Shown here piece after piece: positions 1-59,210 of a stretch of 64,000 bases of DNA (positions within the stretch are counted from its first letter, which is position 1; the number at the start of each line of letters is the position of its first letter). The DNA comes from Escherichia phage phiWec186: the sequence record LC739535.1. One strand, written 5' to 3'. The translations under genes and the position numbers were made by a program. The notes under the pieces are model-generated. The model ran no database searches. It saw nothing but the letters and a program-made list of their open reading frames with translations, and was not told the DNA's origin.

Positions 1-680
1 ATTTAAGTGTCGCAGGGTACAGCATAGTTTCTATTGGTGCTTGGGAGTGTTCTAAGACGAGAATAGAGTTTAGTTGTGAGAATGGACACACGAAGAACAG
101 AACCCTGGCTCAAGCAAAGGTAGTAGAACCTTGTAAACAGTGTCTTGAAGAAGGCTGTACAAAACACAAACAAGATGAGGCAGAGGCAAAAATTATGAAG
201 ATAATAGAAGATAAATGTTTACCTTATGTATTTGTAGGGTGGGATACTTCTTACAAGAATGTAACTTCAAAATTCAACCTCATCTGTTCGGATCACGGTT
301 TAAAAACAATAAGATACGCTTGTTTCCTAAATGGTCATTTTTGTAACGAGTGTTCTGGTAGAAATTGCCTAAGTCTTTATTTATTAGGAGTTTATGATAG
401 AGACTTGTTGGTAGGTTTAAAATTTGGCATCTCTCAGAGTCCAGTAAGAAGGGTTCAACAGTTAAATAAAAGGAACTTATTTAAATGTAAAATACTACAG
501 ATTTGGACTTTTACATCACATGATCAAGCTGTACGGATGGAAACATTATTAAAGAACACATTGCGAACTGGAATATTTACTAAAAGAGAGATGAAAGATG
601 GTCATACAGAAACCACAGAAGTTACTAATTTAGAAACCATAATGGACCTTATGACCTCATCTCATGGATTGGTTAGTTAA
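1..680 (+). CDS. T5orf172-domain protein (GIY-YIG superfamily-like), 5' partial
   Basis: Frame is open from window start into ORF 195..680. Cys-rich N-terminal repeats and C-terminal KFGI...DGHTETT block shared with the paralog at 55452..56465. Confidence 0.55.
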   Translation, partial: LSVAGYSIVSIGAWECSKTRIEFSCENGHTKNRTLAQAKVVEPCKQCLEEGCTKHKQDEAEAKIMKIIEDKCLPYVFVGWDTSYKNVTSKFNLICSDHGLKTIRYACFLNGHFCNECSGRNCLSLYLLGVYDRDLLVGLKFGISQSPVRRVQQLNKRNLFKCKILQIWTFTSHDQAVRMETLLKNTLRTGIFTKREMKDGHTETTEVTNLETIMDLMTSSHGLVS

Positions 681-5663: not shown

Positions 5664-6013
5664 AGAATATTATTGCGGTGGATGTATTTGGTGCAAGCGT
5701 CTTGCAAGACAAGCAAGCTATGCTGTACCACTATGAAGAAGATAAGCTTACGTACATTTATGTCGGGTCAGAAAAGTATCGTATCTTTGATTTGGCTTTG
5801 TTGAAAGAGGGTGATCTCCCTTTAACAGAGAAGCTATATGGCTTCAAATTCAGACGAGATGTAAAGCTTGATGGGAAGATTGCAGTGATTCAAGTTGACG
5901 CGTATTATATCATTACCTTTGTCACCCCTGTGTTCAGCGATCTGAACGGAGAAGGTGCTATTAATGATGTGATCGTCCTGAAAGTAGGTAATGCATTGCA
6001 CGATGTGAAATAA
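5660..6013 (+). CDS. hypothetical protein
   Basis: ATGA overlap, SD GGGAGGAA; start moved from 5639. Confidence 0.5.
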   Translation: MKNIIAVDVFGASVLQDKQAMLYHYEEDKLTYIYVGSEKYRIFDLALLKEGDLPLTEKLYGFKFRRDVKLDGKIAVIQVDAYYIITFVTPVFSDLNGEGAINDVIVLKVGNALHDVK

Positions 6014-6024
6014 CAGGAGGTAGT

Positions 6025-6534
6025 ATGTTCTTTGACGTAGATTCCTTATTCGTTGCCACTGCTGGACAATCTGCGGTTAACGCAGAGTTTGAAGAAAGGG
6101 AGGCGTGGATTGATGCTCATAACTATGATCCTACAAACCTAAACTGGTGCTGTATGGATATCAAAGGTATGAGCAGGGATAGTGCGTTTAGGGCATACTA
6201 CGCTGTATATACTCTTGACAATCTTTATCAGTATTTTGTATTCCGTAATATGATTGTCAACCTTAATCTTGCTGGGAGACTAAAGAACAAAAAAGAGTTT
6301 ACTTTAGGGCACTACATACCGTTCAAAAAAGGTGGTGAACATTTTCCTTCCAACTGGACAGTGCAAATAAGAGTTGAAAATAACAACGCAGGTGATACAA
6401 TACCAAAAGTCAAAACAAAATGGTCATGGGAGAAACAGGAACGTTATATACGTTCCCATCTCCCACCAAACCTGAGAGAGCCGTATGCGAGTCGGGCCTT
6501 TCATTTAATGAATATTGTCAAGAGTTTTTACTAA
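6025..6534 (+). CDS. hypothetical protein
   Basis: SD AGGAGG upstream. Confidence 0.55.
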   Translation: MFFDVDSLFVATAGQSAVNAEFEEREAWIDAHNYDPTNLNWCCMDIKGMSRDSAFRAYYAVYTLDNLYQYFVFRNMIVNLNLAGRLKNKKEFTLGHYIPFKKGGEHFPSNWTVQIRVENNNAGDTIPKVKTKWSWEKQERYIRSHLPPNLREPYASRAFHLMNIVKSFY

Positions 6535-35274: not shown

Positions 35275-36183
35275 ATGTCCGTAATTAATACTGAAACTGA
35301 TCGTAAAGGCAAAACTGTAACTTATGCAACTGGTGTTGTAGACTACGTTAAACTGGATAAATTCGCAGAGCCTAAAACCTTCCAATGGGATGGTAAGTCG
35401 ATTGTTTCTACTCACCGTGCTTCACTCGTTCTGAAAGAAAAGGGTGCCAAGCAGGATGCAAAAGGGACGTGGATTAGCCTGGGTGATATTGAACTGAAAG
35501 AAGGTTACGAAAATCTTCAGGTTAAAGATGGTGATACTTGGATCACTATCGAAAAAGGTGTTGAAGTTAGTATTGATATCGACAAAGTTGATACCAAAGG
35601 CGACAAAACTTACTACAATACCAAGAAATCTCGTATCACTGTTCTTTCTACTGAAGGTGTTCAGAAGAAAGAAAATAAATCTGGTGGGACTGGCGTTTCA
35701 GGTAATACTGGAAACAAACAATCCTTCAAAAAACGTGATACCGTAGGTCTTGAGACTGGTCATGCAGTTAACGGAGCTTTGGAACTGATTCGTAATGGTG
35801 TGAAAGGTGAAGCGTTTGATATTGCAGGTGTGGTTCAGTCTGCTACTGTGACTCTGAAAGCTGAAGTGGCTAAAGAGCGTGGCGTAGATATCAGTGATTA
35901 TGATCTGGGGGCTTCTGTTGGTCACGCTGTTCTGAATGCCTGTAAAGATCATTCCGGTAAGACTGTTTCGGTAGAAGATTTGATTGAAACTGCTCGTGAA
36001 GTTCTGGCACTTTCTGACAAGGTAGCTAATGCCATTCGTGGCGCAGCAGAACAACCTAAGAAAGAAGAAGCCAAGAAAGAGCCTAAGAAGGAAGAACCGA
36101 AGCAGGAGCCTAAACAAGAACCTGCTCCTCAACAAAATCCAGAAGAACCTCCAATGGACTTCGATGATGATATTCCATTCTGA
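35275..36183 (+). CDS. ssDNA-binding-like protein with E. coli SSB-type C-terminal tip
   Basis: Ends in PPMDFDDDIPF after a Pro/Glu/Lys-rich linker; ATG at 35275 after AGAGGAG. Confidence 0.55.
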   Translation: MSVINTETDRKGKTVTYATGVVDYVKLDKFAEPKTFQWDGKSIVSTHRASLVLKEKGAKQDAKGTWISLGDIELKEGYENLQVKDGDTWITIEKGVEVSIDIDKVDTKGDKTYYNTKKSRITVLSTEGVQKKENKSGGTGVSGNTGNKQSFKKRDTVGLETGHAVNGALELIRNGVKGEAFDIAGVVQSATVTLKAEVAKERGVDISDYDLGASVGHAVLNACKDHSGKTVSVEDLIETAREVLALSDKVANAIRGAAEQPKKEEAKKEPKKEEPKQEPKQEPAPQQNPEEPPMDFDDDIPF

Positions 36184-36211
36184 TCTTATTGATTTATAAA
36201 GAGTTTTTATA

Positions 36212-36247
36212 AAAGAAAAGGGAACCTTTGCGGGTTCCCTTTTTTAT
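36212..36247. terminator. bidirectional rho-independent terminator at the strand switch
   Basis: A-run, gggaacc/ggttccc hairpin, T-run; lies between convergent genes. Confidence 0.7.
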
Positions 36248-52404: not shown

Positions 52405-53139
52405 TTATGCTCCTGAAGGTTTCAAGGATTCCGCACTTGAGCTTCCGCTCTGAATGTTGCGAACCGTATGGGTGTGGGTATGGAAGCCAATACCATTACC
52501 GTCTGTCATCAATCCGTTCTGATCAATCTGTAGTCCGTTAATGTTTGCAGACGTGCCTTTGAAAGTCATGACACCACCTGTCAAATCCAGGGTGCCGGAA
52601 CCGTCTGTCATTGTTATTCCAGAAGGAGTAATATCAATCTTCATTCCTTGACTATTCCATATCGATATAGTGCCAGAAGGATCGAAAGATGCATACGTGT
52701 TTTTGTTATTTGAAATAACTACCTTCTCGGAATCTACTGCTTCTGTTGAATCGGTGCCTGTGGAAATCTTAGGAATAAAGCAAATCGGATATAAACCGCA
52801 AGGCTGCATTAATGTAGTCGTTGTGGCTGCTTCTCCAGAAGTTTGCATTGCATTCGAAGGATCTCGTTCAGAGAAAATAACAACACCAATATCACCGGAT
52901 TTAATAGGGAAGGAGATACGCCCTGTACCTCCTCCATTAACCATAAAAGGAACATCGTGGAAGGTTGGATAGTCGATAGAATCTTCTTCTGATCGCGTAT
53001 TCTTCACAATGGATTCCAGTGTCAGTGTTTTTGCACCGTAATTAACACCTGTAACTCGCACTGGTAATGAGGTATGCACCTCTGCCAGTTGTTCTGTCAT
53101 CATGCCACGCATTGCTGTGACAAAGTTCAAAGCATCCAT
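52405..53139 (-). CDS. baseplate central spike protein (gpV/gp5-like)
   Basis: Gly-rich beta-helical C-terminus ending in GFHTHTHTV (His-x-His apex-type motif); position before the wedge gene. Confidence 0.5.
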   Translation of the reverse strand: MDALNFVTAMRGMMTEQLAEVHTSLPVRVTGVNYGAKTLTLESIVKNTRSEEDSIDYPTFHDVPFMVNGGGTGRISFPIKSGDIGVVIFSERDPSNAMQTSGEAATTTTLMQPCGLYPICFIPKISTGTDSTEAVDSEKVVISNNKNTYASFDPSGTISIWNSQGMKIDITPSGITMTDGSGTLDLTGGVMTFKGTSANINGLQIDQNGLMTDGNGIGFHTHTHTVRNIQSGSSSAESLKPSGA

Positions 53140-54152
53140 TATTTACCTTCCTTCGTCATGATCGCAGATACAGATACGCACTCAACCTCGGTAATCCACT
53201 CACTACCTTCCTTGTCTCCATGATGCGATACCGACACCACTTTAAATGGTCCATCGTAATCACGACTCTTCAGCCAGATAGTTTTTTCAGGTAAGATTGC
53301 ACCATTCATTTGACATTTGAACTTCACACCGTCTGTAGGTTTCTTGGCTTTCTTAGAAGCTTTAGTCACCTTCTTGGCAGGTTTGATATCGTTGTGGAAT
53401 GGTTCTGGGCTTCCTATCAACCCTGTTTCAGGACTGATGTAGGCGCTTCTTGCGTTGGACATTTGTGAACGAGGTGTAACATAAACAGACCCATCTTGAA
53501 TAGACACGTTATGATCAATACTCTTACAAATGTGTTCCAGGTAGTGTGAAGTATTTCCACACATCGCTGTCGCAGAAGAAAGGGTCTGATCATTGTCGAT
53601 ATGAATGTTACCTTCTGTTGTCCCAAGATCCTTAACAAGATCTGCAACAACACGTCTTACTTTCGTCCCTTTAGGGTAGCTACGACTGGTACGGGCTTCA
53701 GAGATGTTGATACCTCCGTCCAGACAATGGAGAACAGTTTTACGATCGACACTATCGAACGTATCACTTACCCACTGAATTGTACCCTTGAAAATCATAA
53801 CCAATTCTTGCCCTTCGTATCCAACTGCTAAAGCTACTGCCAGGTTGTTACGAATGCCTCGGTTGATGTAGTTTACTGTGTCATCCGACAGGTTGTAAAC
53901 AGTAATCTCCGCTTGGTTAGGATCTTTGTTATTATCTTTCTTGATATTGAAAGTAATTTGATGATGTTCAAGTAGATACAAATTAGAAGAAGATTTTGTA
54001 GTGCTTCCCAATTTAGTATCCAAATCTACTGTTGATTTAAAGGATGAGTTGCTTGTCCTTTTCTGCACGGTATTCGTTGCCGTACCAATCAACAGTTTAT
54101 ATGCCCTGTTCAGATTGGGAACAGGGGCTTTTGTATATTCTCTTTCTGCCAT
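53139..54152 (-). CDS. baseplate hub-like protein (putative)
   Basis: 337 aa between tape measure and spike; SD AAGGGGAG. Confidence 0.35.
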   Translation of the reverse strand: MAEREYTKAPVPNLNRAYKLLIGTATNTVQKRTSNSSFKSTVDLDTKLGSTTKSSSNLYLLEHHQITFNIKKDNNKDPNQAEITVYNLSDDTVNYINRGIRNNLAVALAVGYEGQELVMIFKGTIQWVSDTFDSVDRKTVLHCLDGGINISEARTSRSYPKGTKVRRVVADLVKDLGTTEGNIHIDNDQTLSSATAMCGNTSHYLEHICKSIDHNVSIQDGSVYVTPRSQMSNARSAYISPETGLIGSPEPFHNDIKPAKKVTKASKKAKKPTDGVKFKCQMNGAILPEKTIWLKSRDYDGPFKVVSVSHHGDKEGSEWITEVECVSVSAIMTKEGK

Positions 54153-54170
54153 ACAATCTCCCCTTAACTA

Positions 54171-54584
54171 TTAAGCTTGGTTCGATAGATTATCTATGTA
54201 AACCAAAACAAAACGTTTTTCAATTCCTGTAGTTGTGTAACCAGGACGACCGTTAATCTTTACCGTATCGATCATGTAAAGCTGTCCATCGGGAACACCT
54301 TCGAGATACTTGTACGGCTTCAGCAGGTCAAGTCCGTTGGTTATCTTAAACGTTACGCTCGGTTCGTCTCCTGATAAACCTATAAGGCACTGCCAAGCTT
54401 CATCACGAGTGTTCCAACGTAAACGTATATCGTAATCTACACCATCCAATGTTACAGTGTAGGTTTGGTCTGGATATTCTTCTGTCTTCAAATACCAGGC
54501 AAAGTAATCAGAACGGTCTTCCAAGAAGACAGCCTTATATCCAGAGTTTGTTGTGCTTCGTGTTGCTTTAGAATAAGTTGCCAC
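54171..54584 (-). CDS. tail protein (hypothetical)
   Basis: GTG start after GGAGGG. Confidence 0.4.
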   Translation of the reverse strand: MATYSKATRSTTNSGYKAVFLEDRSDYFAWYLKTEEYPDQTYTVTLDGVDYDIRLRWNTRDEAWQCLIGLSGDEPSVTFKITNGLDLLKPYKYLEGVPDGQLYMIDTVKINGRPGYTTTGIEKRFVLVYIDNLSNQA

Positions 54585-54586
54585 GA

Positions 54587-55294
54587 TTACCCTCCGTTAT
54601 TCGACGGTGTATTAGTATCTCTTGCAGCATTTTGGTTAATTGGGTTAGTGACTTTAGCACCACCAGTTGGAGCCTTGCTCTTAACCTCGCCACCAGTAGA
54701 TTTGTTCGGGGCAGTCTTCACAGCTATCGCGTTAGTTGTTGCAGTGCTGACCAAACGAATCTGCTCCAATTCCAGGTTGAACTGCATAGCGAATTCTGAA
54801 CGATATTCGTAAGTGTAACCTTTCAGGATCACGTTCTCGAAAGTACGGTGTTCTGTTAATAGAACTATCGGTTGACGAGCATCAAAAATCTGATCAAGGT
54901 ACTCGATTGCTTGGGAAATACGTGTTCCATTAACCCCTGCACTGTAAAGCTGATCACGCATCAAACGTACAGGCGTTTCTGTAATAACACCTGTCAATTT
55001 AAAAGTGTTGTTGTTTATTTTGACGTTATCACTCACTGTACTGCCGGATTCAACAGGGAAGCTTGTGATATCTGCTGAACGAGTTACTCCAACTTCCGGT
55101 GCGGAGTCGAAAGTAATCGCCATAAAGTTTTGTATGTATTGATCACTTGAGCTATTGTAAACACTGGCTAAGATACAAAAACCGTTATCACCTTTCACCG
55201 TGGAGGCGGAGTTATTCGTATTTTGTGTTGAGTTCACCTCTTGCTCGGATTTGTAGACGGCTCTTACCGACTGTTGTGGAGTCATTGCTGCCAT
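54587..55294 (-). CDS. tail protein (hypothetical)
   Basis: ATG at 55294 after GAGG; the track start at 55321 is TTG. Confidence 0.4.
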   Translation of the reverse strand: MAAMTPQQSVRAVYKSEQEVNSTQNTNNSASTVKGDNGFCILASVYNSSSDQYIQNFMAITFDSAPEVGVTRSADITSFPVESGSTVSDNVKINNNTFKLTGVITETPVRLMRDQLYSAGVNGTRISQAIEYLDQIFDARQPIVLLTEHRTFENVILKGYTYEYRSEFAMQFNLELEQIRLVSTATTNAIAVKTAPNKSTGGEVKSKAPTGGAKVTNPINQNAARDTNTPSNNGG

Positions 55295-55397
55295 GATAAC
55301 CTCATAGTAATGGTAATGCAAAGAGGAAGATGCAAGATCTTCCCATATTGATTATGATACCACAAATGTCGTCGTTATGTCAATGTAAAAATAATTC

Positions 55398-55426
55398 TTG
55401 ACTACCATGATCCGCCTTGCTACACT
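55398..55426 (+). promoter_or_regulatory. sigma70-like promoter TTGACT-N17-TACACT
   Basis: Immediately upstream of the + strand T5orf172 gene inside the minus-strand tail module. Confidence 0.45.
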
Positions 55427-55451
55427 GTATTTATTAACTAAGGAGGAAATT

Positions 55452-56465
55452 ATGGGCGTGATTAAAGGTTGGGACATTCAGAAGAAAGAATGTGAAGAAG
55501 TGGCAAGACCAGGTATTACTGTTCTTGGATTTGTTGAACCGTGGAATGGTGCACATACCAAACTGATGCTGAAATGTGAGAAGCATGGGGAATGGAATAC
55601 AACCTCCATCAACAACTTCAAAAAGAATGGTTCTGGTTGTAATGGTTGTAGAGCGGATATATGTGGTGCAAGAGCAGAAGGGAATAGCTTTGCAAGTAAA
55701 AATGCTATCTCAGATGAGCAACACATTAAGGATTTCTTGGCTACCGGATTGTTTGCAGAGGGGACAACCTTCGTCAATACAGGTGTGAAAACAAAAGGTA
55801 ATCACAACTGCGTGTGGAAAGTAAGTTGCCCTGTTTGTGCTGTGGATGTATATTCTCAAGCTGGTTTATGTGATGGTAGTTTTGAAGGTCTGACTACACA
55901 CCTTAAGGCTGGAAAGGTTCCTTGTCGTTGCTCTCCACGTCATTGCTATTCTAAAGACCAATGGTTGTTTAGATTTCAGTTAATGTGTGAAGAAAAAGGT
56001 TATACTTTCATCAAGGCCATCTACGAAGGGGAAGCATACTCTCATGGAGATGTTGAGTATGCTTGTCCAGAACACGGCTCACAACGCATGACTGTGAAGA
56101 ACCTCATGTCAGGTAAAGGTTGTCCAGAGTGTGCCAATAAAACACAACAGTTCTGTTATATCAATGAAGTGTATGATGAAGATAATAATCTCTGCGCTCT
56201 TAAATTTGGAATTGCCAATGATGCTGAACGTAGGATCAAAGGTCAGAACTCGAAGAATGCTTTCACAATGCAACAGAAAGCTGTCTACTTCTTTGATGAT
56301 ATCAAGTCGTGTCGAGCAGCAGAAAGGAAGTGTTTGAAGATGTTGAAGTGCGGTGTTGTGAATAAATTTCAATTGCAGGATGGACACACAGAAACAACCC
56401 ATCTGGACAATTACGAAATTATTGAGGCTATTTACGAAAGTTTTGGAGGGGTGTTACAGAAATGA
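55452..56465 (+). CDS. T5orf172-domain protein (homing-endonuclease-like)
   Basis: Cys-rich N-terminal repeats and C-terminal LKFGIANDAERRIKGQ...DGHTETT block, paralogous to 1..680; SD AAGGAGGAA. Confidence 0.6.
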   Translation: MGVIKGWDIQKKECEEVARPGITVLGFVEPWNGAHTKLMLKCEKHGEWNTTSINNFKKNGSGCNGCRADICGARAEGNSFASKNAISDEQHIKDFLATGLFAEGTTFVNTGVKTKGNHNCVWKVSCPVCAVDVYSQAGLCDGSFEGLTTHLKAGKVPCRCSPRHCYSKDQWLFRFQLMCEEKGYTFIKAIYEGEAYSHGDVEYACPEHGSQRMTVKNLMSGKGCPECANKTQQFCYINEVYDEDNNLCALKFGIANDAERRIKGQNSKNAFTMQQKAVYFFDDIKSCRAAERKCLKMLKCGVVNKFQLQDGHTETTHLDNYEIIEAIYESFGGVLQK

Positions 56466-56467
56466 AA

Positions 56468-56490
56468 AAAGGGGCCGAAGCCCCTTTCTT
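56468..56490. terminator. bidirectional terminator
   Basis: aaaaaggggc-cgaa-gccccttt hairpin flanked by A- and T-runs between convergent genes. Confidence 0.6.
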
Positions 56491-58444
56491 AGTTACCACC
56501 AGATTGTCCACTTAAAGTAGCTAAAGTTAAACGGTTGAAAACATTGTTACCACTGTTCTGAATACGAGCATCCAACATATTACCAAACTCCGAAGACGGG
56601 TTGATTGTTACGTTGATCAGATCACTCGGAATAGCAATCGTGTTTTCTACAATAGGTTGGTTACGAGCCAGATTAACGTTTGGCGTATAAGCTGTTTCAC
56701 GCAAATTCTCTAAAGGATTCCCGAAACCGAAAGCATGTGTTCGAGTTTCTTCTCCTCGGAACATTCTTCCAACGTCTTGAGTATCAATTCCAGTCCACTT
56801 ATAAAGGAAGTCGGCTACTGGGTTGGTATCTCCTGATTGTGTTGCGGCGTACAATTTGTCCGGTATAGTTTTATTAGGATCAGAATCCGGTCCGAAGATA
56901 GATGGTAAGTTTGTCACTAACCATTTATTAATATCTTCCGTGATACCGATAATCTCTGTACCAAACTTAGCAACATTCAGTGTGGCATTTGCAAACTCCA
57001 CCCCAAGATTCTTGGCAAAATTGTCCAAAGATTTAACGTTATCTAACCAAGATTCGTCTTTAGGTATTGCACTCATAAATCCTTCCAGGAAATAGTTCTG
57101 CATCCCTTGACCAACCAAACCTATTGTTGCAGTTAAACGTGTGTACTGTTTAGAAGCTTCCATTTGCTCATTAGTCAATGCAGCACCAGTACGTTGAAGC
57201 ATACGGAGGGTTTCTTGGAAGCCTTCTCCGTTCTTGCTAAACATACGTTGGTAATGCATGAGGTCATCTCCAAGGTTCTCAAGAAGACGACCAATCTGTG
57301 CCGAGTTCATGCCGCGACGCTCACCTTCATTCACAGTTGCCTGGATGAAAGCTAACGGATCGTTCTGCATGTGCTTAATTTGCGAAGGGTTCCAGCCGAA
57401 CATGTTCATGATATCGTTGATACCGTTGTCCCCGCCACGCCATTTTCCTTTCTTCTCGTCCCATTCAGAAGCCATCATCGAGTTACCTAAACGTTCACGA
57501 ACGTCTTTAAGGTTATCGATTGACTTGATAATGTTTGCCGAGTCAACACCGTTCTGTTCACCCCAAGCAGTCATTGTCATAATGGCGTTGGCGTTTGCCT
57601 GAACGTTCTCTGCACCACGACCTACAAACTTGATACGATCATTAGCATTTTGCAAAGTGTTCCCTACAACAGAGCCACCTGCAAATAACCCTGCACCGAT
57701 CATAGAAGAAACCATCATACGAGGGTTAAGACCTAAAGCACCATCTCGCATTTGGGAATACTTACGTTCCTTATCTCGACGTTGTTGTGCCAATTCTCGT
57801 TTATGGTTACGTTCAATATCGCGCAACTCTTTATCACGCATACGTTGACGTTGCTTGGCTTCTGCTTCCAGTTCTCGACGAATCCTACGGCGACCACGAA
57901 CCTCATCCTCAATATCTTTCGTTTTTTCTCTGTGGGATTTACGAAGGTTATCAAGCTGATGGGCCAGAGTTTGGTTCATACGTTGAAGAGTGATATCTCC
58001 ACGTTTGTATGATTCTACAGAGGCATCCATGATTTGTTTTGCTTGGCGTTGTGCATCTATGGAAGCTTTGGTATATTGCATACCACGCTTCTCAAAATTC
58101 TCCATGCGGAGGTTGCCTAAATCGTTACGACGAGCTTGGAGTTCTGCTGCGCGTTCTTCTGGTGTTTTCTTACCTGGTTTCGTTGGACGACCAGGACCGG
58201 AGGTAGTTCCACCACCTTTTGGAGCAGAAGGGGGAGCAGGGCGAGCAGGGAAAGTCTGCGCTTTACGCATTTCTCTTTCGATCTCTTTCATCTGCTGCCT
58301 AAATTTACTCATGTTTAAGGTAGGTTGGATTTTTTCAGCGAACCTTTTAATACTTTCGACAGAATCTTTGGCCTCTTTGAGACTGTTCTTGTCCACCTTA
58401 AATGTGACTACGTTACTGATTTTTGAGGCATTAATATCTAACAA
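56489..58444 (-). CDS. tail tape measure protein
   Basis: 651 aa, long charged coiled-coil regions plus Gly-rich hydrophobic segment MIGAGLFAGGSVVG; sits between chaperones and baseplate genes. Confidence 0.6.
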   Translation of the reverse strand: MLDINASKISNVVTFKVDKNSLKEAKDSVESIKRFAEKIQPTLNMSKFRQQMKEIEREMRKAQTFPARPAPPSAPKGGGTTSGPGRPTKPGKKTPEERAAELQARRNDLGNLRMENFEKRGMQYTKASIDAQRQAKQIMDASVESYKRGDITLQRMNQTLAHQLDNLRKSHREKTKDIEDEVRGRRRIRRELEAEAKQRQRMRDKELRDIERNHKRELAQQRRDKERKYSQMRDGALGLNPRMMVSSMIGAGLFAGGSVVGNTLQNANDRIKFVGRGAENVQANANAIMTMTAWGEQNGVDSANIIKSIDNLKDVRERLGNSMMASEWDEKKGKWRGGDNGINDIMNMFGWNPSQIKHMQNDPLAFIQATVNEGERRGMNSAQIGRLLENLGDDLMHYQRMFSKNGEGFQETLRMLQRTGAALTNEQMEASKQYTRLTATIGLVGQGMQNYFLEGFMSAIPKDESWLDNVKSLDNFAKNLGVEFANATLNVAKFGTEIIGITEDINKWLVTNLPSIFGPDSDPNKTIPDKLYAATQSGDTNPVADFLYKWTGIDTQDVGRMFRGEETRTHAFGFGNPLENLRETAYTPNVNLARNQPIVENTIAIPSDLINVTINPSSEFGNMLDARIQNSGNNVFNRLTLATLSGQSGGN

Positions 58445-58458
58445 AGTATTTCCTCCTG

Positions 58459-58707
58459 TTAGTGTATCATTTTCTTAAACATGTCTTGCATTTGAGAAGC
58501 GTTCTCTTGTTGCTTTCTCTTTATTGAAGTGTCTTTGCTGTACAGAGCTTCGATATAATCCTCATAGGTGAGGTACTCGTACATTCCTAACAGATAATCC
58601 ACCCCGTATTGATCCAGGGTGGAGCGTGTTTCCGAGGTATTCTTCACAACCTTGCAGAGAATGATCTCATACCACTTCAACGTAAGAGTCTTCTCTGCGG
58701 TTTCCAT
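58459..58707 (-). CDS. tail assembly chaperone, frameshift-extension ORF
   Basis: No SD before its ATG; lies in the -1 frame relative to the upstream chaperone. Confidence 0.45.
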   Translation of the reverse strand: METAEKTLTLKWYEIILCKVVKNTSETRSTLDQYGVDYLLGMYEYLTYEDYIEALYSKDTSIKRKQQENASQMQDMFKKMIH

Positions 58708-58727
58708 CGCGTGACGAATGGCTGGAC

Positions 58728-59210
58728 TTAGTTCGTTGCCAGATCCTGAACCGCTTGGAACTGGGTCAACAGTTTTCCGAAACCTCGTTTGAAAAAAGGG
58801 CCATAGTTCACCTCAAGAACTTTTGCTGTCAAGTCGAGGACAAGTTCTGGGTGAGCAAAGAAGAGTTCATCGAAGTTATCAGATACATTATGTCCTGCTT
58901 CGGTATATACTTCGTCTAAGATCTTACGGAGGAACACGGTAAGGTTCTTCTCTTCAAGACCAGAGAACAATTGAATAAGTGCCATTGCAATACGAGATTC
59001 CAGATCTTCATCAGCCGACATAAGGGCGGTATTGTACATGGTCATAGGTACAGCTAAAACGCTACCGAGTTCTGGAATACGTTCGAAGACCTTTGAAGGA
59101 CTCCACTTCAGAATACGGAAGGTTACGAAACGGGTTTCATCCAAGTAAATTTTTACGATTTCTTCTGGACGTGCATATTGTTTGATAGTATCGTCTTGTT
59201 GTTCTGACAT
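58728..59210 (-). CDS. tail assembly chaperone
   Basis: 160 aa acidic protein between tube and tape measure; SD AGAGAGGA; slippery T_TTT_TTC near its 3' end. Confidence 0.55.
   Translation of the reverse strand: MSEQQDDTIKQYARPEEIVKIYLDETRFVTFRILKWSPSKVFERIPELGSVLAVPMTMYNTALMSADEDLESRIAMALIQLFSGLEEKNLTVFLRKILDEVYTEAGHNVSDNFDELFFAHPELVLDLTAKVLEVNYGPFFKRGFGKLLTQFQAVQDLATN
58791..58797 (-). promoter_or_regulatory. candidate -1 programmed ribosomal frameshift site (T_TTT_TTC)
   Basis: Minus-strand heptamer TTTTTTC in the zero frame of the chaperone gene; the -1 frame is open into ORF 58459..58707. Confidence 0.45.

Follow-up and report, generated by a model that had tools for sequence, protein, structure and literature searches.

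The 64,000-nucleotide (nt) stretch of Escherichia phage phiWec186 analyzed here (LC739535.1; hereafter the window) carries a + strand gene for a protein of 337 amino acids (aa) at 55452..56465, between a Dit-like tail gene (54587-55294, minus strand; Pfam Dit_like, 1.9e-24) and the tape-measure gene on its other flank (56489-58444, minus strand; 651 aa), whose product has no Pfam domain. The encoded protein joins three zinc-finger modules to a C-terminal GIY-YIG/T5orf172-like domain. We consider it likely that this is a free-standing homing-endonuclease-type gene of the CapR-zinc-finger/T5orf172 (GIY-YIG) class, contained in an expression cassette of its own that lies between two tail transcription units, and we infer that its product acts as a nuclease and supports homing.

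The 6 kb around the nuclease gene are 100% identical to Escherichia phage phiWec181 (LC739534.1), with window position 53000 corresponding to record position 111520. phiWec181 is a myovirus of ~154 kb in the Stephanstirmvirinae, listed in GenBank under Phapecoctavirus and placed in the proposed genus 'Wecvirus' (PMC12695924). GenBank labels the nuclease gene of phiWec181 a 'hypothetical protein', and endonucleases are not mentioned in the paper that describes these phages (PMC12695924). The initial annotation had singled the gene out as a lone + strand gene in a minus-strand module, and this agrees with our survey: among open reading frames (ORFs) of at least 130 aa between 36247 and 63324, with shadow ORFs excluded, all others lie on the minus strand.

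The expression cassette

We defined the variable interval of this locus as the bases between the TGTCAA box, which is the -35 box of the Dit promoter as read on the + strand, and the tape-measure stop codon. In the window this cassette covers 55384..56488 (+) and 1105 nt, and in six orthologous loci it measures 1067-1107 nt. The TGTCAA box is kept in every relative, with the nuclease gene present or not. The left border of the cassette is A-rich (TGTAAAAATAATTC at 55384..55397 of the window, +); the border sequence TGTAAAAATAAT is the same in all seven gene-carrying loci, as is the 18-nt stretch made up of the Dit -35 box and the cassette left border.

A private sigma70-like promoter had been claimed for the gene, and the seven-locus comparison bears this out, the hexamers being conserved and the spacer not. 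The promoter (55398..55426, +) consists of TTGACT (55398-55403), 17 nt and TG-n-TACACT (55421-55426), and this combination is found once in the window. A consensus scan taken alone did not rise above chance, with 5 sites against 8.0 expected in shuffled sequence. The -35 core TTGAC is common to all seven loci while the 17-nt spacer varies between lineages, and the conserved -10/5' untranslated region (5'UTR) block GCTACACTGTATTTATTAACTA, followed by the ribosome-binding site AAGGAGG, occupies 55419..55446 (+). The 22-nt -10/5'UTR block is 100% identical in seven of seven loci, whose ORFs are 59-84% identical in nucleotide sequence, and the ribosome-binding site is likewise present in each, with one substitution in locus L013. 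The program-listed ORF runs from a TTG at 55398 to 56465 (+). We rejected this start in favor of the ATG at 55452, which a ribosome-binding site (55440-55446) precedes and at whose position the orthologue L004 has GTG; the promoter -35 box begins with the TTG at 55398. With the start at 55452, the product is therefore 337 aa long.

At the other end lies a convergent, shared terminator hairpin (GGGGC-CGAA-GCCCC, flanked by A and T tracts) at 56465..56490 on both strands, overlapping the tape-measure stop codon (56489-56491). Its predicted folding energy is -12.8 kcal/mol on the + strand and -16.7 kcal/mol on the minus strand (z ~ -2.9 each), so that the bidirectional terminator described in the initial annotation holds up, being stronger for the tape-measure transcript (six U) than for the + strand gene (UUUCUU). 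The ORF end and the terminator stem are conserved in the seven loci, with the loop/stem variant GGGGCGTAAGCCCC in L005 and L012. Since conserved elements stand against a lineage-variable spacer in all seven loci, the conservation pattern indicates that both promoter and terminator are functional.

Back to back with the cassette promoter is the divergent sigma-70-type promoter of the Dit/baseplate genes (55354..55383, minus strand; TTGACA, 18 nt, TATCAT; 11/12 matches, with TG), and 14 nt separate the two -35 boxes. This arrangement bears on the idea that the protein is a domesticated CapR-like regulator which binds near the Dit/baseplate promoter or its own promoter and tunes tail transcription, its nuclease domain being inactive or secondary. 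The zinc-finger part is related to CapR, which binds at the -35 box to repress the ICP1 capsid operon (PMC8096241); here the cassette abuts the Dit -35 box, and neither the 18-nt left border nor the 22-nt -10/5'UTR block varies between alleles. However, CapR has no nuclease domain, whereas the present protein has one that is modelled with high confidence, carries an Arg and a Glu that are invariant in 37 homologues (both detailed below) and has a ratio of nonsynonymous to synonymous divergence (dN/dS) of 0.047. The tail genes of most relatives also work without the nuclease gene, and we regard such a regulatory role as very improbable.

Zinc fingers and nuclease domain

The zinc-ligand modules are C42xxH...C63xxC (module 1), C126xxC...C158xC (the CapR module) and C205xxH...C224xxC (module 3). 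Pfam CapR matches in three stretches (3.6e-27; 94.8 bits against a cut-off of 24.2 bits), the CxxC...CxC pattern of the CapR module is the published CapR signature, and the zinc-finger models DUF4379 and DUF723 gave near-threshold matches. A search of PHROG returned family 681, 'endonuclease' (4e-56), and an NCBIfam search with the protein gave no useful match. CapR is found in all 37 homologues that we collected, and the zinc ligands are invariant throughout; T5orf172 is matched at E<=0.01 in 12 of the 37 (best 6.3e-5).

Residues ~229-337 make up the GIY-YIG/T5orf172-like domain, with Y236, K251, G253, R261, E291 and E314 as its marked positions. G253, R261 and E314 are invariant in the 37 homologues and the remaining three nearly so. 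An AlphaFold model built from the homologue alignment has a mean predicted local distance difference test score (pLDDT) of 88, and the C-terminal 109 residues modelled alone reach 96.9; the modelled domain has the GIY-YIG alpha/beta fold. By their position in this fold, R261, E314 and G253 would be the catalytic Arg, the metal-binding Glu and the second-strand Gly, respectively. The T5orf172 label given to the gene in the initial annotation is therefore backed by fold and homologues but not by the protein's own Pfam score, and the sequence data place its family as a divergent T5orf172 branch, of which this protein taken alone fails the Pfam gathering score.

Presence, probable loss and exchange among relatives

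Alignment with related phages, which had been proposed as a check, showed that the gene is absent from the closest relatives, the Pseudomonas phage PsgM04F (96% identity) and phiWec188/190 (94%), whose alignments fall ~1.04 kb short of the query length. Proteins of more than 60% identity are encoded in only two of 50,697 phage records, phiWec179 and phiWec181. The gene is likewise missing from the interval in ~125 more distant, phAPEC8-type GenBank relatives, which have just 37 nt there; their matches across the interval are ~1.05 kb shorter, and homologues of ~44% identity occur at other loci. The interval measures 1105 nt in the window, 66 nt in PsgM04F, 70 nt in phiWec188 and 37 nt in phAPEC8, where it consists of a different terminator hairpin and holds no trace of the gene.

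The 66-70 nt intervals keep the left border sequence TGTAAAAATA, which is retained in both of these genomes and missing from phAPEC8-type genomes, together with the terminator hairpin and 16-19 nt of homology into the ORF end. Part of this homology was discounted, as the AGAAATGAAAAAA that precedes the hairpin is similar to an A-tract, GAAACGAAAAAA, in the phAPEC8 terminator, which is unrelated; we counted as remnant only the further 7-13 nt, the hairpin and the left border. The C-terminal FGGVLQK is also found in paralogues at other loci and therefore belongs to the gene family. Judged from these remnants, the 66-70 nt intervals of PsgM04F and phiWec188 look like deletion scars, in which absence would be secondary and not the mark of an unoccupied target. 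It follows that phiWec181 is probably an old carrier whose nearest relatives lost the gene, not a recent recipient. Both scars read TATAG where carriers read TACAG or TGCAG, and their tape-measure flanks match different carrier types: the tape-measure 3' type of PsgM04F is that of the window (99.6%) and that of phiWec188 is the type of L013 (97.1%). Deletion by microhomology between the GGAGG of the ribosome-binding site and that of the ORF end was considered and rejected, as the promoter is also gone from the scars.

Six further alleles, with aa identities of 87, 80, 72, 65, 64 and 53%, were found in metagenomic relatives, all through protein database look-ups. All six are encoded on the strand opposite to the Dit-like and tape-measure genes that flank them; the next homologue, P0010 (47%), sits at a different locus. 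IMG/VR yielded neither close protein relatives nor the 22-nt conserved block, and a scan of JGI metagenomes for this block found nothing. The seven alleles (53-100% aa identity) have identical cassette borders and occupy one specific site.

The history of the ORF differs from that of the backbone. Between the window and L003, synonymous divergence (dS) is 0.99 for the ORF, 0.07-0.32 for neighbouring tail genes and 0.69 for the tape-measure gene. For L004 and L011 the ORF dS is 1.31 against 0.165 for the tape-measure gene and 0.019 for a chaperone gene; for L005 and L012 it is 0.72 against 0.11 for the tape-measure exon and 0.36 for a partial Dit gene; and for L013 and L003 it is 2.8 against 0.085 for the Dit gene. 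Sliding-window identity drops at the ORF start in all four backbone pairs and recovers at the ORF end in two of them. Within the ORF, dN/dS is 0.08-0.15 in the four pairs. Since ORF dS lies far above flank dS, dN/dS is this low and the ORFs are intact, we conclude from these comparisons that the alleles are old and functional and that near-identical genomes have exchanged them, with the conserved cassette ends as the apparent route. Because the ORF diverges far more than its flanks in four near-identical backbone pairs, the coding part can be said, on this evidence, to move independently of the backbone. The mobility that these alignments record is replacement of the ORF within a fixed promoter-terminator cassette, not insertion into empty sites. 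In L013 the Dit gene is 97.9% identical to that of L003 and the ORF 62.9%. The L013 ORF is the most divergent (59-66% nucleotide identity) and is equally far from same-site alleles and from other-locus homologues, and it looks like a replacement by another lineage of the nuclease family.

Such a pattern is difficult to reconcile with an ordinary 'moron', that is, an accessory gene acquired by chance between tail genes with a function unrelated to its own spread, for example host DNA degradation. A promoter-ORF-terminator unit on the opposite strand between late genes, variably present among relatives, would suit a moron well, but ORF-only replacement between near-identical backbones is unexpected for passive cargo. 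Seven alleles at one exact site also speak against it, and a multi-finger, sequence-reading array fused with a GIY-YIG nuclease points to a target that is long and specific. We rate the moron explanation lowest of all, marginally below the regulatory one.

The initial annotation had called the gene a mobile, selfish insertion, a description that would have sat badly with a gene present in all relatives in conserved synteny and with no detectable mobility. What we find is a protein with known domains of the homing-endonuclease class, patchy presence, a fixed site in seven diverged alleles and an ORF phylogeny in conflict with that of the flanks, and we retain that description in outline. Read from the alignments, the population signatures comprise a fixed occupied site, patchy presence with deletion remnants, and ORF alleles much older than their backbones and under purifying selection.

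Several observations weigh against a homing endonuclease gene. The match to Pfam T5orf172 (PF10544) scores 18.2 bits, under the cut-off of 20 bits (E=0.0037, residues 235-327), the canonical GIY and YIG tripeptides are CYI and KFG here, and PDB sequence searches with the whole protein and with a C-terminal profile detected no GIY-YIG sequence. Base composition gives no signal of foreign origin (GC 41.0% versus 42.6%). We found no near-identical pair of genomes with a filled site beside a pristine empty one, and pristine 37-nt sites occur only in phAPEC8-type backbones, which are ~73-77% identical. Homing of T5orf172 genes lacks experimental verification (PMC10448857). Finally, all seven alleles are intact and under purifying selection, which would also fit a gene useful to the phage.

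This last point leads to the rival that is hardest to exclude because purifying selection on all alleles suits both readings: a phage-beneficial competition or defence nuclease which cuts co-infecting relatives or a satellite, with gene conversion as a by-product. Mechanistically it overlaps with a homing endonuclease. Its appeal lies in the intactness of seven out of seven alleles at a dN/dS of 0.08-0.15 over a dS above 0.7, in the strict conservation of promoter, 5'UTR and terminator, and in a protein class that includes the anti-satellite nuclease Odn (of ICP1, which cuts PLE) and candidate coliphage equivalents (PMC10448857). The protein, however, has no RepA_N or other satellite-matching DNA-binding domain but only CapR/DUF723 fingers of the putative homing class, and PADLOC returned 0 families at E<=0.1. 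Further, close relatives lacking the gene show that it is dispensable, and a fixed site combined with patchy presence is the pattern of homing. We therefore consider a beneficial nuclease unlikely, though less so than a regulator or a moron, and favor a homing endonuclease gene.

Proposed homing, related systems and neighbouring features

For a homing endonuclease gene we propose the following sequence of events. Host RNA polymerase would transcribe the nuclease gene from its own sigma-70 promoter, probably early and in the direction opposite to that of the late tail genes. Antisense read-through into the tape-measure gene would be blocked by the shared hairpin, which would also end the tape-measure transcript. 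The three zinc-finger modules, which are evident from sequence and model, may jointly read a long DNA site, and the GIY-YIG domain would cut the target in a co-infecting relative without this allele. Recombinational repair from the carrier genome would then copy the gene, sometimes with the tape-measure 3' end, into the cut genome. One candidate cleavage target is the 37-nt phAPEC8-type interval, in whose place the cassette stands; the variable 3' region of the tape-measure gene is another.

The gene belongs to a known class and is not a new kind of system; what is added here are the exact boundaries, the signs of loss in nearest relatives and the ORF-only exchange in an invariant cassette. 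Phage T5orf172 genes with CapR/DUF723-type zinc fingers at the opposite terminus have been described by Netter et al. 2021 (PMC8096241) and by Barth, Dunham and Seed 2023 (PMC10448857). CapR/T5orf172 genes are free-standing, vary between isolates, occur as several paralogues and often lie beside essential genes including the tape measure, and one T5orf172 nuclease has been found to depend on a glutamate for its activity (PMC10448857). The gene studied here resembles the ICP1 CapR/T5orf172 class in having N-terminal CapR/DUF723 modules and a C-terminal T5orf172-type GIY-YIG domain, in being free-standing, with paralogues and variable presence, and in its position beside structural genes at exchange boundaries. 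It differs in its Stephanstirmvirinae ('Wecvirus') host lineage, in the T5orf172 match under the Pfam cut-off and in that none of the seven alleles is frameshifted. We found no description of ORF exchange inside an invariant promoter-terminator cassette for this class. With PLE CapR, the capsid-operon repressor of a Vibrio cholerae satellite, the protein shares the CxxC...CxC zinc-finger DNA-binding domain; unlike that nuclease-less, satellite-encoded repressor, it has a conserved C-terminal GIY-YIG domain.

Other GIY-YIG homing endonucleases, such as the Seg proteins of phage T4 and the intron-encoded I-TevI (catalytic domain, 1LN0), carry the nuclease at the N-terminus. In contrast, the nuclease domain of the present protein is C-terminal, its DNA-binding modules are of another kind and it has no detectable sequence similarity to Seg or I-TevI.

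The nuclease gene explains why phages that are otherwise 94-100% identical differ by 1.04 kb in length, and it points to a recombination hotspot in the tail module of a phage group collected for biocontrol. With seven alleles at one site, two genomes with scars and many clean sites, the locus would make a handy natural system for testing homing of the T5orf172 class. Otherwise, this is an expected kind of element for a large lytic phage.

The 3' part of the tape-measure gene, roughly its last 185 codons (56489..57050, minus strand), is hypervariable and shows partial linkage with the nuclease allele. Up to ~57000 this 3' end of the window gene cannot be aligned with that of phiWec188 or of L004, and the last ~500 nt of the gene fall into four mutually unalignable types where other tail genes are 91-100% identical. 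By analogy, the ORF swaps and this 3' variability fit published nuclease genes at boundaries of genetic exchange. One could speculate that nuclease ORF and tape-measure 3' end form co-evolving 'cutter plus resistant target' haplotypes, each allele cleaving variants of the tape measure or the cassette that are tied to the others, so that old alleles are kept and repeatedly swapped into near-identical backbones through the invariant promoter and terminator arms. We give this idea rather little credence. If true, a selfish gene would be what diversifies the tape-measure C-terminus and, in some lineages, what keeps a group I intron nearby.

Such an intron is present in L012, where 348 nt without an ORF (5836-6183, minus strand; Rfam RF00028, 91 bits, E=6e-23) split the tape-measure gene. 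An intron-split tape measure goes with the 64-65% alleles, namely in L012 and, judged by gene layout, in L005 and a second ENA contig. The L012 intron interrupts the tape-measure gene where that gene is most conserved, at a distance of ~0.8 kb from the nuclease gene, and the equivalent site in the window is ~57284/57285. In 'collaborative homing', a free-standing endonuclease gene stands beside an intron-containing gene (cited in PMC10448857). The same-site alleles of L012 and L005, ~0.8 kb from a tape-measure group I intron, resemble this arrangement. An Rfam scan of window positions 54000-59000 found no RNA family, so the tape-measure gene of the window is intronless, unlike those in collaborative homing. 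The intron insertion site was also considered as the nuclease target and set aside as unlikely, since phiWec181 equals the gene-less phiWec188 there.

The initial annotation had also pointed to a paralogue at the left window edge, and tblastn confirms it with 31% identity over the C-terminal 131 aa (E=1e-15). Positions 1..680 (+) hold the 3' part of this CapR + GIY-YIG-like gene, open in frame 3 from base 3 to 680. The complete protein is BDU12440.1 (317 aa; Pfam CapR 1.5e-20, MUG113 0.0016), and its gene begins 274 nt left of the window, sits at a strand switch at the left window edge and has its own TTGACA-17-TAAATT sigma-70-like promoter. Some 4 kb further left is a third paralogue, BDU12430.1 (337 aa), which is 33% identical over the full length, giving phiWec181 three paralogues. 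We looked for the cassette promoter/5'UTR motif elsewhere in the window and upstream of the paralogues, and for a terminator common to cassette and paralogues, and found neither; that the paralogues carry the same cassette was rejected, as they share no promoter, 5'UTR motif or terminator with it. Of the two paralogues beyond the cassette gene, the one that is not at the window edge (L009:45143-46156) lies inside a minus-strand early operon, straight after a terminator hairpin.

Some host labels in this comparison are odd for phages that match this E. coli group, namely those of PsgM04F (L001, OR584014.1), Campylobacter phage B15 and Acinetobacter phage ABPW7. Over the 6-kb tail region PsgM04F is 96% identical and B15 ~76%, the latter like Escherichia phapecoctaviruses, and the ABPW7 match consists solely of a homologous endonuclease of ~42% identity. 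The host labels of these three phages may deserve caution.

On the scale of the window, a convergent strand switch at ~36183-36247 separates a + strand block (1-36183) from the minus-strand structural block (36247-64000). For the Dit-like gene, the program-listed ORF begins with TTG at 55321 (244 aa; span 54587-55321), and the start is likely the ATG at 55294, which follows a GAGGT ribosome site; the annotated products of relatives are 233-236 aa long. Its leader, between the -10 box (55354-55359) and this start codon, contains a perfect 7-bp hairpin (GGAAGAT GCAAG ATCTTCC, 55325-55343) that is kept in all relatives examined, with the nuclease gene present or absent.

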